A DNA stretch of 64,000 nucleotides from Candidatus Heimdallarchaeota archaeon (lineage in GTDB: Archaea > Asgardarchaeota > Heimdallarchaeia > Heimdallarchaeales > Heimdallarchaeaceae), in assembly GCA_019057815.1 (NCBI GenBank), contig JAHLWR010000006.1:64001-128000 (forward strand), given 5' to 3'. Below the pieces are notes generated by a model. The model did not search any database, was not told the origin of the DNA, and was given only the letters and a program-made list of their open reading frames with translations. Shown here one piece after another: positions 53,032-64,000 of the stretch. A program made the position numbers and the translations under genes. The first letter of the stretch is position 1; each line of letters begins with the position of its first letter.

Positions 53032-53598
53032 ATGAGTAGCGACAAATTTTTTGTTCATAGTAGCGCTTTTGTGGAAGATAATGTAACCATAGGTGATGGA
53101 ACCAAGATATGGCACCAAACCCAAGTTAGAAAAGGTGCAAAACTTGGGAAAAAATGTATATTGGGTAAATCTGTCTTTGTAGACTTTGACGTCTCAATTG
53201 GCGACAATGTAAAAATTCAGAATTTGGTTTCTGTTTATCATGGTGTTACAATTGAAGACGATGTGTTTGTGGGACCACATGTTTGTTTTACTAATGATTA
53301 TCTCCCCAGAGCCACAAATCCGGATTGGAAACTAGTTGAAACATTAATTGAGAAAGGGGTATCTATAGGCGCGAATTCAACAATTCTTTGTGGAATCACG
53401 CTAGGATCTTACTCAATGATAGGAGCTGGAAGCGTTGTGACAAAAGATGTACCAGCATTTGCTTTAGTTTTTGGAAATCCTGCAAGATTTCAAGGATATG
53501 TATGTTATTGTGGGAGTGTTTTGTTAAAAACAAAAGAAATCCTATCAATTGGAACCATGTTACAATGTGATAACTGCAAAAAAACAGTTGAACTCTAA
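53032..53598 (+). CDS. Hexapeptide-repeat sugar N-acyltransferase (WbpD/WxcM-like)
   Basis: VHSSAFV, GTKIWH, VKIQN, FTND, GASIG-like GVSIGANSTI, GNPAR; C-terminal CYC...CDNC. Confidence 0.88.
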   Translation: MSSDKFFVHSSAFVEDNVTIGDGTKIWHQTQVRKGAKLGKKCILGKSVFVDFDVSIGDNVKIQNLVSVYHGVTIEDDVFVGPHVCFTNDYLPRATNPDWKLVETLIEKGVSIGANSTILCGITLGSYSMIGAGSVVTKDVPAFALVFGNPARFQGYVCYCGSVLLKTKEILSIGTMLQCDNCKKTVEL

Positions 53599-53754
53599 GA
53601 AAGGCGAAATTACAACAAAGTTTAAATGTTTATTTTGGAGAAACTAATAATGTCGATAACTGGGGCAAATATGATGGTGTTACAAATGTATAAATGTAAC
53701 AAATTCTGTACCATTAGTGATTCATAAGTGAACAAGAAAAATAGGTGAACTAGA

Positions 53755-53967
53755 GTGAATTTAATTTCTATCCGACTTCCGAGTGAATTTGTTGAAATTA
53801 TAGATGAAATGGTAATGCAAGGAAAATTTGCTTCAAGATCCGAAGCCATTAGACTTGCACTTAGAGACTATTACCGTGAACACTATTCTAATCGACAATC
53901 AACAGATTTCAGCTTTCCAAATGTGGAATATGCAGCTTATCGTAACATAATCTATAAGGAAGACTAA
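53755..53967 (+). CDS. CopG/ribbon-helix-helix regulator
   Basis: ISIRLP...IDEMV..G.FASRSEAIRLALRD. Confidence 0.85.
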   Translation: MNLISIRLPSEFVEIIDEMVMQGKFASRSEAIRLALRDYYREHYSNRQSTDFSFPNVEYAAYRNIIYKED

Positions 53968-54001
53968 GGCGTGGTTTGAGGGGTTCAAGCAAAAAGTCTC
54001 C

Positions 54002-54010
54002 TTTTTTTTT
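54002..54010 (+). terminator. Oligo-T terminator candidate after the RHH gene
   Basis: T9 tract about 35 nt after the stop. Confidence 0.45.
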
Positions 54011-54130
54011 CATAGTTTAGGATAAACGTTATCTTTAACAGAGAGAAGAAGAATTTTTTAATATCTAAACAAAATGTTGATTTGTAGTCACAAGTACAAT
54101 ATTAACTGTTTCTTTACAAGGTGAAATTAA

Positions 54131-61277: not shown

Positions 61278-61457
61278 TACTTTCTACCTAAACAGACCTT
61301 ACTGAGTTTTTAATATATGACAATTGTGTTTATCTGCTTAATTAGTTTGTTTACTTCTAGTAATTTAGTTTAAAATAGCATAGAATTTTCCATTTAAGTT
61401 TTATCAGTTTATCGTTCTAGCCACTAGATTTTTGAATGAAATTTCTTTCAGTATATT

Positions 61458-62621
61458 ATGGACAGACAACAAATTCAACTTCAACTGTCCGAAGTTCAAG
61501 ATAAAGTACTTTTAAGCGAGGGTGTACGAGGACTACTCAAATTTTTAGCTGTTATTGATCGCTTTCCAAATTCGGGAATACGAAGAATATCACGAGAAAC
61601 AGGTTTTCCAGTTCCTATTTGCGTCGCAATAAGAAATGAGTTCGTAAAGAAAGGTTGGTGTAAGAAAGGTAACGGAACTGTTGTGACTTCTGAAGGAAAA
61701 GATATTTTTCTATTTTTCAGCTCGCAGAATACAAGTTTTAGATGTGGAAACTGCGAAGAATATGGTGTGTTTTTCCCATTAAAGAACTATGAAAAAGAGT
61801 TAGAATTAATTAAGAAGTACACCCAATTAAGAGGACAACCAGATACAAAAATAGATCAGTCTTTCGCTACATCTCGAACTAGTCTATATAGAGCGCTCTA
61901 TATGATTCATAACTATGATCTGTTTTCAGGTGATTTTGCTTTAGTAGGTGATAGTGATTTAACAAGCATTGCAATCTCTCAATTTATCCCGAAATCTTCG
62001 AGAATAACGGTGTTTGATATTGACTCTAAACTTGAAAATATTATTAACACTGCAAACAAGGAACTTTCAAACAAGATTGAGTTTGTAAAACACGATTTGT
62101 ACCAACCTATACTAGAATCTTATCATGGAAAGTTTACGTGTATACATACAGATCCACCTTATACCAAGCAAGGATGTAAATTATTTATATCGAGAAGTGT
62201 AGATTTGATTAACAAAAAAACAGGTGGAGCAATATATTTGTCTTTTGGGAATAAACCACCAGTTGAAATGAAACAAATACAAGAAGATCTTCTAAAAATG
62301 GGTTGTGTAATAACTAATATTCTCCCTAATTTCAACAAATATATTGGTGCTCAAAAACTAGGCGGTGTTTCGACCTTTTATAGATTACAAGTTATTCCTT
62401 CAGCAATCCCTATCATAGATGGTAGATATGAAGGTATGCTTTACACAGGGGAAGTCAACCCCACTATTAGAAAATATAAATGTCAAAATTGCAATAGGAC
62501 AACAACTGTTGGAATTACAGAAGAGTTTTCAACAATTGAAGAGCTAAAAAATAAAGGGTGTCCCAAGTGTAAGATGAGCTCTTTTACAAAGATTAGCGAA
62601 AAAAAGAGGGAAGAATTTTAA
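61458..62621 (+). CDS. BpsA-like (DUF43) branched-chain polyamine synthase/aminopropyltransferase homologue
   Basis: N-terminal wHTH; IDQSFAT...R, VGDSDLTSIA, VFDID, HDL, TDPPYT, LFISR, FNKY; C-terminal CQNC...CPKC. Confidence 0.75.
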   Translation: MDRQQIQLQLSEVQDKVLLSEGVRGLLKFLAVIDRFPNSGIRRISRETGFPVPICVAIRNEFVKKGWCKKGNGTVVTSEGKDIFLFFSSQNTSFRCGNCEEYGVFFPLKNYEKELELIKKYTQLRGQPDTKIDQSFATSRTSLYRALYMIHNYDLFSGDFALVGDSDLTSIAISQFIPKSSRITVFDIDSKLENIINTANKELSNKIEFVKHDLYQPILESYHGKFTCIHTDPPYTKQGCKLFISRSVDLINKKTGGAIYLSFGNKPPVEMKQIQEDLLKMGCVITNILPNFNKYIGAQKLGGVSTFYRLQVIPSAIPIIDGRYEGMLYTGEVNPTIRKYKCQNCNRTTTVGITEEFSTIEELKNKGCPKCKMSSFTKISEKKREEF

Positions 62622-62647
62622 AACCATTAGAAGCTATTATTGTTATA

Positions 62648-63325
62648 ATGAGGATATTTGAGACTATCCACCCAATAATGGGTGTGGGTAATTCTTATTT
62701 AATTTTACGTGAAGCTGAATGTGTTTTAATAGATACGGGATACTCCAGAAGTGCAAAAAAAATAATTAATGCAGTGAAATCATTTGCCTCTGATAGACCT
62801 CTTGCAACAATAATAGTAACCCATGCACATCTTGACCATATTAGAGGGTTGGAAACACTGAGTATCCTATTTGGAGCAGAAGTAGTTGTTCATAAAGATG
62901 AAGGCAATTTTATAATGAAATTAGAAAAATTTCCTCGCGCACAAGGATTTTTGTCAAATATTGTCACAAAATTAACTGAGTTAATGTCTCCCCCCCCATA
63001 TCCTATTGATCGTGTGGTAACAAATGGAGAAGTAATACATGGACTGAAAATTATACATGTCCCGGGGCACACCCCGGGTTCAATAGCTTTGCTGGACAGC
63101 GTGACTGGTGTATTGTTCTCGGGTGATGCAATTACAACTAATAATAAAGGCTCTAAGATCTTGCCACCCCACAGACTGTTTTGCATTGATATTAAAGAAG
63201 CTAGGAAATCTGCATTACGGTTAATAAATGACACTCAACCTAGTGCAATATTACCTGGACATGGAAAACCAATTTTGGATCCAGAGGAGCACATGTCGGC
63301 ATATAAAACTAAGTTTGGTGGATGA
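62648..63325 (+). CDS. Metallo-beta-lactamase-fold hydrolase
   Basis: LIDTG, THAHLDHIRG, PGHTPGS, FSGDA, PGHG. Confidence 0.92.
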   Translation: MRIFETIHPIMGVGNSYLILREAECVLIDTGYSRSAKKIINAVKSFASDRPLATIIVTHAHLDHIRGLETLSILFGAEVVVHKDEGNFIMKLEKFPRAQGFLSNIVTKLTELMSPPPYPIDRVVTNGEVIHGLKIIHVPGHTPGSIALLDSVTGVLFSGDAITTNNKGSKILPPHRLFCIDIKEARKSALRLINDTQPSAILPGHGKPILDPEEHMSAYKTKFGG

Positions 63326-63329
63326 TTTC

Positions 63330-64000
63330 GTGACCAAAAAATCATTCGTAACATTCCTGATTCTAAGTGAGATTATCGCACTATTTCTAATCCTGTTTTT
63401 TAATATTGGAATGTTTGGTTTTGATGCTTACATCCATCTCCAATACTGCAGCGCGATTTTAGAGAACAAACATATTTTACAACTAAGTATAGCAAAGAGT
63501 TATTATGACTTCGTAGGCTTCCATATCTTTATTTCTGCTATCGCTTCTTTAACAAGTATCCCTGTATCTGCAATTTATAAATTTGCGAGCGTAATCGTGC
63601 CTATATTGGTTTTTAATCTAACAATAATCGCATTTATTCGTCATGTTGAAAAGAAAAGGAAAGGTTACATTTCAAATGGTATTAATTTACAATACTTGTC
63701 ACTTGTTCTCTTGTTTCCTTCTTTGATAGGAATCCAGATGTTTTTTGGTCGACCAAACTCTCTTGGTATCGCATTTTTTAGTCTTTGTCTCTATCTTTAT
63801 CTGTGTAAAACAAAAAGTTTCAAATCTCAATTATTGGCAGGATTGTTAGTTATTGTCACTGTAAAAATTCATCATTTATCTGCTATATTCTTACTACCTG
63901 TTATATTCTTTACAAGTATATTTTTAGCAAGTAATTACAAAACTATATTGTCTTTAATCTACACTTTTCCAGCGGTTATAGTCGTAAATACAATTCTTGA
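63330..64000 (+). CDS. Polytopic membrane protein, GT-C-fold glycosyltransferase-like (3'-truncated by the window edge; absent from the ORF track)
   Basis: GTG at 63330, open to the window end: TM1, GFDAYIHL loop, YYDFVGFHIF, RPNSLG, IHHLS, multiple TMs. Confidence 0.6.
   Translation, partial: MTKKSFVTFLILSEIIALFLILFFNIGMFGFDAYIHLQYCSAILENKHILQLSIAKSYYDFVGFHIFISAIASLTSIPVSAIYKFASVIVPILVFNLTIIAFIRHVEKKRKGYISNGINLQYLSLVLLFPSLIGIQMFFGRPNSLGIAFFSLCLYLYLCKTKSFKSQLLAGLLVIVTVKIHHLSAIFLLPVIFFTSIFLASNYKTILSLIYTFPAVIVVNTIL

Follow-up and report, generated by a model that had tools for sequence, protein, structure and literature searches.

Spermidine is needed for the hypusination of a/eIF5A, and the known routes to it are either S-adenosylmethionine (SAM) decarboxylase (AdoMetDC) together with an aminopropyltransferase, or a pathway that starts from aspartate semialdehyde and proceeds via carboxyspermidine. 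Asgard archaea, the group dealt with here, are among the closest known relatives of eukaryotes. Several systems are relevant for comparison. The carboxyspermidine and carboxyaminopropylagmatine routes end in a pyridoxal 5'-phosphate (PLP)-dependent decarboxylation by an enzyme of the alanine-racemase fold, giving spermidine without AdoMetDC (PMC10599626). In microcin C, the aminopropyl group is installed by the SAM-dependent transfer of a 3-amino-3-carboxypropyl group by MccD, followed by decarboxylation by the PLP decarboxylase domain of MccE; this order is favoured, and the reverse has not been excluded (PMC10491745). The BpsA of Thermococcus kodakarensis (Tk-BpsA) cannot do without its GDDD motif, in which Asp159 and Asp160 hold the aminopropyl group of decarboxylated SAM (dcSAM) in position (PMC12979288). 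The locus compared with these systems occupies positions 53,032 to 64,000 of the window, by which the whole analysed stretch of 64,000 nucleotides is meant (G000:C16:64001-128000, where G000 is the source genome, a 3.7-Mb Asgard genome that is 95% complete). It carries a PLP decarboxylase gene and a gene for a BpsA-like transferase arranged head to head, and this pair is a candidate AdoMetDC-independent aminopropylation route.

The decarboxylase is a PLP-dependent enzyme of fold type III and of a distinct LysA-like subfamily (60006-61277, minus strand; PF02784, 128 bits). The BpsA-like protein, a SAM-fold transferase (61458-62621, plus strand; PF01861, 140.7 bits), is encoded on the other side of a divergent intergenic region whose coordinates (61278-61457) make it 180 bp long. 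Behind the decarboxylase gene lies that of a YkgJ-type CxxCxxCC Zn/Fe-binding protein (59463-59990, minus strand; PF03692, 43.1 bits), which belongs to the same core in the family Heimdallarchaeaceae, and behind the transferase gene lies that of a metallo-beta-lactamase (MBL)-fold hydrolase (62648-63325, plus strand; PF00753, 105 bits), an optional member. The family calls on the locus proteins were made by Pfam and NCBIfam profile searches.

The conservation of this arrangement was followed in 20 Asgard genomes, over 20 kb surrounding the orthologue of the BpsA-like gene, and in 25 named loci from GTDB species representatives. In what follows, f1 denotes the Heimdallarchaeaceae, g1 to g5 its genera, and other f numbers other Asgard families. 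The gene combination is not unique to the source genome, as it is vertically conserved in about 25 species between the genes for a ThiF-family protein and methionyl-tRNA synthetase (MetRS). The whole array from ThiF through MetRS is syntenic in g1, g3 and g5, including Heimdallarchaeota AB_125, with about 42-64% protein identity for the cluster's own genes across these genera. Such flanked synteny points to vertical descent rather than repeated assembly. In these three of the five genera, a set of glycosyltransferase, deacylase, membrane-protein and sortase genes flanks the core on both sides.

The remaining two genera present a different picture. In the metagenome-assembled genome (MAG) G080 (g4), the locus holds only a hexapeptide acyltransferase gene and, further along, the YkgJ and decarboxylase genes diverging from those of the BpsA-like protein, the MBL hydrolase and MetRS. 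In g2, represented by the closed genomes of Ca. Heimdallarchaeum aukensis PM71 and Ca. H. endolithica PR6, only the BpsA-like gene and, diverging from it, the decarboxylase and YkgJ genes are kept, set in another neighbourhood of cysteinyl-tRNA synthetase, enoyl-CoA hydratase, amino-acid kinase and gyrase B. Whole-genome searches found the cluster sortase and the ArnD-like gene in none of these three genomes and in 26 to 27 of the 27 others. The three family 4 glycosyltransferases (GT4s), the family 2 glycosyltransferase (GT2) and the GT-C-like gene are also missing at the locus in both g2 genomes and in G080. The decarboxylase, in contrast, is kept in genomes where the cluster sortase was not found. 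Every near-complete Heimdallarchaeaceae genome that was searched has the YkgJ, decarboxylase and BpsA-like genes. Throughout the f1 loci, the head-to-head order is preserved and YkgJ adjoins the decarboxylase, also where glycosyltransferases are lacking. The MBL gene comes after the BpsA-like gene in most f1 loci, again including G080, but the g2 loci and some of those in g3 are without it. The hexapeptide acyltransferase gene is likewise kept in G080, which is without the glycosyltransferase block, and its membership in either group is uncertain. Thus, the locus is two modules and not one system: an always-present enzyme pair and an optional surface-glycan/sortase block, whose genes are gained or lost together across the family. 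On the overall explanation offered here, the first module, namely YkgJ, the decarboxylase, the divergent BpsA-like protein and sometimes the MBL hydrolase, would supply aminopropyl groups for polyamines without AdoMetDC, while the second would build a surface glycan. Confidence in this explanation as a whole is evenly balanced.

The preliminary description of this DNA had proposed a single polyamine-glycan system, in which the ArnD-like enzyme unmasks a sugar amine, the pair aminopropylates it, and the GT-C-like protein delivers the product to surface proteins or lipids. On such a model, the product might serve as an amine acceptor for the sortase. The tight co-orientation of the genes lends this idea some appeal, as only 2 bp separate YkgJ from GT2, and the BpsA-like and MBL genes run into those of the membrane protein and a GT4. 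Further, this order is kept across about 25 species at 50-60% protein identity, and the sortase and glycosyltransferase genes co-vary as a block. The coupling itself is not supported, since the pair persists in G080 and the two closed g2 genomes, which yielded neither the cluster sortase nor an ArnD-like gene in the searches and whose locus is without the glycosyltransferases. The neighbourhood comparison thereby found the pair unlinked from the glycosyltransferase and exosortase genes in relatives, an arrangement which that description had itself named as contrary to its proposal. The vertical descent indicated by the ThiF- and MetRS-flanked synteny also counts against it, as does the tie of the homologues elsewhere to AdoMetDC and not to glycosyltransferases. 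Lastly, the pair is the only candidate aminopropyl source of the genome. A role of the pair in glycan tailoring is therefore judged highly improbable. Nevertheless, the other part of the proposal, that the decarboxylase and the BpsA-like protein look like a working pair in aminopropyl chemistry, is upheld.

The polyamine genes of the genome bear on the need for such a pair. Profile searches of the source genome found no AdoMet_dc (PF02675), SpeE (PF01564), diaminopimelate (DAP) epimerase or NspC. AdoMet_dc was found in none of the 28 other f1 genomes searched and not in G025, a genome of another Asgard lineage. No bona fide SpeE was found in the family, only weak PF01564 matches of 26-36 bits. 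The search for the eukaryote-type AdoMetDC (PF01536) was uninformative, as its control was silent. At the same time, the source genome encodes deoxyhypusine synthase together with a true agmatinase (221.7 bits; cut-off 174.3), and also a divergent protein of the PvlArgDC family (35.8 bits). An aminopropylated polyamine thus appears to be required by the cell, which also seems equipped for the reactions before and after it. No paper on polyamine synthesis in Heimdallarchaeaceae, or on a SAM-direct route in primary metabolism, was found in the literature searched. Elsewhere in the genome, a GNAT-fold protein (G000:C27:97114-98208; L158:115-1209) matches the N-myristoyltransferase N-terminal domain (PF01233, 27.6 bits against 25), and its gene adjoins a second arginase-family gene.

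The BpsA-like protein is made up of an N-terminal domain, a BpsA_C domain and a C-terminal Zn ribbon, and aligns to the BpsA structure 5xnc over residues 40-297 (E 1e-26). Its residues 164-167 read GDSD, where BpsA has GDDD. The gene is present in 28 of the 28 other f1 genomes and widely elsewhere among the 301 genomes of the phylum sampled. A fusion to AdoMet_dc in one open frame of 460-507 amino acids, with the pyruvoyl AdoMet decarboxylase at the C-terminus, was counted in at least 46 genomes, which belong to f5, f14 and f11 (for example, G192:C6:53109-54470 and L052:9632-11146). In f6, AdoMet_dc is the gene next to that of the BpsA-like protein, as confirmed with Pfam for locus L047. At least 28 more genomes (f6, f12, f21, f23, f24 and others) have AdoMet_dc within about 2.5 kb, and in f12, f21, f23, f24 and others it is often accompanied by a true SpeE. 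Metagenome contigs added further AdoMetDC-adjacent examples and no new decarboxylase-linked lineage; the patterns of that scan lay outside the motif, and it returned mostly GDDD proteins. In this branch of BpsA, physical linkage to the dcSAM-producing enzyme is the rule. Such fusion or adjacency across the phylum marks polyamine metabolism and speaks against the earlier assignment of the BpsA-like protein to glycan tailoring.

The motif follows the linkage. In an alignment of 28 Asgard homologues, all AdoMetDC-linked or fused proteins have GDDD, all f1 proteins GDSD, and G025 GDGD. The set of 204 homologues available once a full HMMER search of 1.84 billion representatives had been run includes 141 with GDDD; in the others, the changed position is taken by S, G, N or A. 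In a quick maximum-likelihood tree, one clade (SH-aLRT 93) unites the f1 proteins and G025 with two non-GDDD proteins from metagenomes, and three further non-GDDD proteins are unresolved at the base; the metagenomic homologues of this kind are P0049, P0066, P0067, P0068 and P0073. When genome contigs were scanned for the pattern GD[GNS]D, the only archaeal matches were in f1 and G025, and the bacterial ones, from the Candidate Phyla Radiation and a gammaproteobacterial MAG, were short BpsA_C-only proteins without a decarboxylase neighbour. A comparison of clade-specific residues found no second discriminating position besides residue 166, for which the comparison is circular, as the groups were defined by the motif. 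Orthologues are annotated as 'bis-aminopropyl spermidine synthase family protein' or, in JGI, in some cases as 'predicted methyltransferase'. A second, short BpsA_C paralogue of 284 amino acids (G000:C42:26553-27407; L064:5553-6407) has no N-terminal domain, carries GDMD and scores 92.8 bits to PF01861. Every f1 genome has this paralogue, and the sister families f2-f4 gave no other BpsA-type match.

The partner enzyme is equally distinctive. The decarboxylase scores 246.6 bits to the LysA model TIGR01048, below the cut-off of 297.9, and is the sole gene of the ornithine/DAP/arginine-decarboxylase family found in the source genome. Its close orthologues (43-94% identity) occur only in f1 (27 of 28 genomes) and G025, and the lone f1 genome without one is a 76%-complete, 1.2-Mb MAG. 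All other matches are ordinary LysA-like proteins of at most 35% identity. It was observed that f1 and G025 are exactly the genomes with a BpsA-like gene and no AdoMet_dc. The loss of AdoMetDC, the arrival of the decarboxylase and the loss of the donor Asp thus go together, as one evolutionary event and not several. The subfamily has the invariant motifs GGPLCLP(V/T)D and GAYT.SMSEQFGYPRP and keeps the PLP lysine. Its specificity loop reads GGPLCLPVD, in comparison with GPICETGD or GGLCESSD in LysA structures, so that C-L-P stands in place of C-E-S/T and resembles the C-T-P of BtrK, whose substrate is an L-amino acid with a bulky group at its distal end. Other profile scores are 158 bits for DokD, 103 bits for FslC and 44 bits for the NspC-like TIGR01047. 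The model of the XrtA/PEP-CTERM-associated decarboxylase, TIGR03099, gives 153.6 bits, below its cut-off of 478.45. Two simpler roles were considered for this enzyme. That of a housekeeping LysA is ruled out by the sub-cut-off score, the lack of a DAP epimerase and the C-L-P loop, and that of the sole arginine decarboxylase is less likely given the PvlArgDC-family gene.

The route proposed for the pair would run in three steps. Firstly, the BpsA-like enzyme, having changed GDDD to GDSD and lost the Asp that holds the amine of dcSAM, would transfer a 3-amino-3-carboxypropyl group from SAM onto an amine of the agmatine or putrescine type. The LysA-derived PLP decarboxylase would then strip the carboxyl group, leaving aminopropyl, and agmatinase would finally yield the spermidine that deoxyhypusine synthase uses. 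A small neutral residue in place of the donor Asp is what would be expected if the carboxylate of SAM must now fit, and the ancestral end product would be kept most parsimoniously if the transfer from SAM comes first and the decarboxylation afterwards. Such a transfer-then-decarboxylate route to spermidine or a related polyamine, replacing AdoMetDC and a dcSAM-dependent transferase in Heimdallarchaeaceae and in at least one other Asgard lineage, is put forward tentatively, as a real possibility that still falls short of probable.

The two steps may also be imagined the other way round, with the PLP enzyme acting as a non-pyruvoyl SAM decarboxylase that makes dcSAM and the BpsA-like protein as an ordinary dcSAM-dependent aminopropyltransferase. 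The decarboxylase does occupy the place that AdoMetDC takes beside the BpsA-like protein of other Asgard families. SAM, moreover, is itself an L-amino acid that carries a bulky group at its distal end, in keeping with the BtrK-like C-x-P loop, and this order may also apply to MccD and MccE. Even so, an enzyme with dcSAM as donor should have preserved the donor-positioning Asp. Among proteins of at least 300 amino acids, this Asp is present in every GDDD-type protein and in no member of the decarboxylase-linked clade, the groups themselves being defined by the motif. Nor was a PLP-dependent SAM decarboxylase found to be reported in the literature searched. This order is, therefore, considered unlikely.

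A further explanation assumes that the two enzymes do not act in sequence at all. The decarboxylase would make a diamine from ornithine, lysine, arginine or a D-amino acid, the GDSD enzyme would be a methyltransferase or other alkyltransferase with that amine or a different compound as its substrate, and spermidine would be imported or not used. Decarboxylases of the alanine-racemase fold have repeatedly switched substrate, as the DokD and FslC profile scores and the structures of D-ornithine/lysine decarboxylases illustrate. The motif change, too, returns the site to a SAM-tolerant, methyltransferase-like state, in keeping with the name 'predicted methyltransferase' that JGI gives to some orthologues. 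On the other hand, the PvlArgDC-family protein and the true agmatinase already cover the supply of diamine, and where LysA has an acidic residue just after the catalytic Cys, the specificity loop has none. Ornithine decarboxylases also have an acidic residue at this place. Such an assumption does not explain why the decarboxylase subfamily occurs exactly where AdoMetDC is missing, and deoxyhypusine synthase, which needs an aminobutyl donor, is present. It appears rather improbable.

Several observations weigh against the proposed transfer-then-decarboxylate route. Its donor, acceptor and step order are inferred from one transition, in one clade, with context in two lineages, and this is not replicated evidence. 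A methyltransferase or some other SAM-dependent activity would fit the change of Asp to Ser or Gly as well. A comparison with MccD (5FCD) gave no match at E 0.01 or better. In G025, the transferase and decarboxylase genes are separated by 3.5 kb that contain two Kelch-repeat genes, and a YkgJ homologue was not found at the locus. SpeD homologues can be arginine or ornithine decarboxylases instead of AdoMetDC (PMC10407285), which weakens the argument that AdoMetDC was displaced; AdoMetDC is nevertheless the simpler reading of the linked SpeD homologues, since they are mostly single-copy and stand beside a transferase with the dcSAM motif. The completeness of the MAGs (72-95%) limits the claims of absence, though two of the genomes are closed. 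Finally, the pair is co-oriented with glycosyltransferase genes on both sides, a few bases away, in about 25 species, and its product may be shared with the glycan.

What gives the pair its interest is that neither known spermidine route was seen in the whole Asgard family Heimdallarchaeaceae, and a conserved, remodelled transferase-decarboxylase pair was found instead. If true, the proposal would add a SAM-direct route to primary polyamine metabolism and would offer a clear example of non-orthologous displacement in which the change at the active site can be traced. It also carries a caution, as tight and conserved gene order in vertically related MAGs need not mean functional coupling.

The second module comprises an ArtC-like second archaeosortase, three GT4s, a GT2, an ArnD-like protein and a GT-C-like protein with 12 transmembrane (TM) helices, together forming an accessory surface-glycan block. 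In the window, its genes begin with that of the exosortase/archaeosortase family (54131-55129, plus strand; TIGR04178, 42.8 bits). There follow, on the minus strand, GT4 (a) (55170-56339; Pfam Glyco_transf_4 and Glycos_transf_1), the ArnD-like deacylase/deformylase of the NodB superfamily (56314-57234; NF011923, E 2.9e-25), GT4 (b) (57245-58465; Pfam Glycos_transf_1, 127 bits) and the GT2 with two C-terminal TM helices (58462-59460; Pfam Glycos_transf_2, 112.7 bits). On the plus strand, the window ends within the gene for a membrane protein of 582 amino acids with 12 TM helices, possibly GT-C-like (63228-64000; whole gene L002:2228-3976), which extends to the window-equivalent position 64976 and is followed by the third GT4 (64983-66134) and MetRS. 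The tight minus-strand run that had been described is borne out, with gaps of 15 bp between decarboxylase and YkgJ, 2 bp between YkgJ and GT2, and 10 bp between GT4 (b) and the ArnD-like gene, and with overlaps of 4 bases between GT2 and GT4 (b) and 26 bases between the ArnD-like gene and GT4 (a). The run converges on the sortase gene at a distance of 40 bp, and the divergent spacer of 180 bp does precede the plus-strand run of BpsA-like, MBL and membrane-protein genes. Profile searches back all the earlier family assignments except that of GT-C, as the 12-helix protein is only weakly GT-C-like.

The glycan made by this block is probably of the amino-sugar type. The idea that the GT2, the ArnD-like protein, the multi-TM protein and the sortase form an Arn-like lipid-carrier unit for a surface glycan, gained or lost as a block, is still plausible. 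The inferred chemistry would fit an Arn-like or GtrB/YfhO-like logic, in which a sugar is placed onto polyprenol phosphate, deacylated and transferred outside the membrane. Polyprenol-phosphate sugar synthases are GT2 enzymes with two C-terminal TM helices, and the GT2 of the locus has its helices at 243-285 and scores 23.8 bits to the ArnC model. The ArnD-like protein aligns to NF011923 from 10-288 over model positions 3-271 of 294, with 89.1 bits of the 382 needed for an ArnD equivalog assignment, and no ArnA or ArnB was found in the locus. Proteins of the GT-C fold carry a multi-TM domain at the N-terminus and, in their first external loop, an acidic residue that takes part in catalysis. 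The 12 predicted helices of the membrane protein are followed by a C-terminal domain; it scores 18-23 bits to DUF6541 (cut-off 29), a match that appears in 4 of 14 orthologues. Its Atlas neighbours include PMT_2 and OST-named clusters, which are leads only, and an AF2 model built from 14 orthologues (pLDDT 45.8) was too poor to use.

The cluster sortase has no Pfam match. Its membership of the exosortase/archaeosortase superfamily is indicated by the TIGR04178 signature (cut-off 23), a polytopic topology (six TM helices) and its only Cys, which is Cys199 within AACSG. The closest subfamily is ArtC (TIGR03762, 40.9 bits, below the cut-off of 100), and the heimdallarchaeosortase model NF045528 gave no match. 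That model is matched by the family-wide sortase, a different gene of the source genome (G000:C23:28476-29375; L159:977-1876, minus strand; 252.8 bits against 130), and 5 of 5 f1 genomes checked carry a different sortase of this same family. The cluster sortase is thus an extra paralogue that travels with the glycosyltransferase block. An open reading frame (ORF) for a C-terminal fragment of the DNA polymerase II large subunit adjoins the heimdallarchaeosortase gene on C23. In several g3 species, the orthologue of the cluster sortase matches in two to three pieces within a frame of 375-440 amino acids, which suggests a variable mid-protein insertion (for example, G184:C82:49342-50385 and G154:C38:82270-83268).

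About 200 ORFs of the source genome end in a TM helix and a basic (Arg/Lys) tail, examples being C39:87556-87690, C18:41215-41349 and window positions 732-1643. The PEF-type tail family (YYSFTVSEVIPEFQ) has 12 copies in this genome, and a second family of the STDENQLNFTFTLL type has roughly three dozen, as estimated by eye. With a profile made for the purpose, PEF tails were found only in genomes with the cluster sortase, but in only 13 of 28 such genomes. The case for PEF tails as substrates of the cluster sortase was found too weak, given their presence in less than half of the sortase genomes, the second sortase and the larger second tail family.

Upstream of the block lies the gene for a hexapeptide-repeat sugar N-acyltransferase of the NeuD/PglD-like kind (53032-53598, plus strand; Pfam Hexapep, 89 bits; TIGR03570, 105 bits, below the cut-off of 160.8). 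It is preceded by genes for the ThiF-family protein (window 51495-52256) and a Yip1-domain protein (window 52316-52987). Farther upstream of the locus, an ORF of 710 amino acids (window 48809-50941) matches Ribophorin I (PF04597, 50.8 bits).

When compared with known systems, the glycan/sortase block is in itself an ordinary, poorly typed archaeal surface-glycan locus. With the Arn pathway (ArnC-ArnD-ArnT), the locus as a whole shares a GT2 with TM helices at its C-terminus, a deacylase homologous to ArnD and a multi-TM protein that is a candidate GT-C, and with the bacterial PEP-CTERM/XrtA exopolysaccharide loci an exosortase-family protein, a LysA-like decarboxylase and GT4s that score 70-105 bits to the stp1/2/3 models. 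It differs from both in that every equivalog cut-off is missed and that ArnA/ArnB, acyl-CoA ligase, acyl carrier protein and FemAB-like genes are lacking in the locus. In contrast to the XrtA loci, the decarboxylase segregates with the BpsA-like gene and not with the sortase and glycosyltransferase genes.

The transferase shares with BpsA (EC 2.5.1.128; T. kodakarensis 5xnc, P. furiosus 2qm3) the N-terminal and catalytic domains and the DPPxT motif. The Heimdallarchaeaceae protein has GDSD and not the essential GDDD and carries a C-terminal Zn ribbon; in the large Asgard branch to which it belongs, the other proteins are linked to AdoMetDC or fused with it. No source of dcSAM was found in its genome, and the organism is not of a hyperthermophile-type lineage. 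Similarly, the decarboxylase has its best structural-sequence relatives among LysA and BtrK (2p3e, E 2e-53; 1twi; BtrK 7ru7, E 9e-39) and keeps the PLP lysine and the HxHxGT and EPGR-type motifs. It departs from LysA in its score below the LysA cut-off, its C-L-P loop and the lack of a DAP epimerase in the source genome, and from BtrK in having no acyl carrier protein or ligase gene nearby.

As to the pathway as a whole, the proposed last step resembles those of the carboxyspermidine and carboxyaminopropylagmatine dehydrogenase/decarboxylase pairs (CASDH/CASDC and CAPADH/CAPADC), in that a carboxy-aminopropylated amine loses its carboxyl group. In those routes, a dehydrogenase brings in the carboxyaminopropyl group from aspartate semialdehyde, whereas here a transferase would take it from SAM, and the f1 decarboxylase is LysA/BtrK-like and not NspC-like. 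The nearest parallel in design is that of MccD and the N-terminal domain of MccE in the microcin C pathway of E. coli. Both systems pair a SAM-dependent transferase of the methyltransferase fold with a PLP decarboxylase, and the f1 pair would, like the Mcc enzymes, install aminopropyl without AdoMetDC. The acceptor in the Mcc system is a peptidyl-nucleotide phosphoramidate in an antibiotic pathway, whereas the pair of Heimdallarchaeaceae is family-wide, single-copy and presumably housekeeping.

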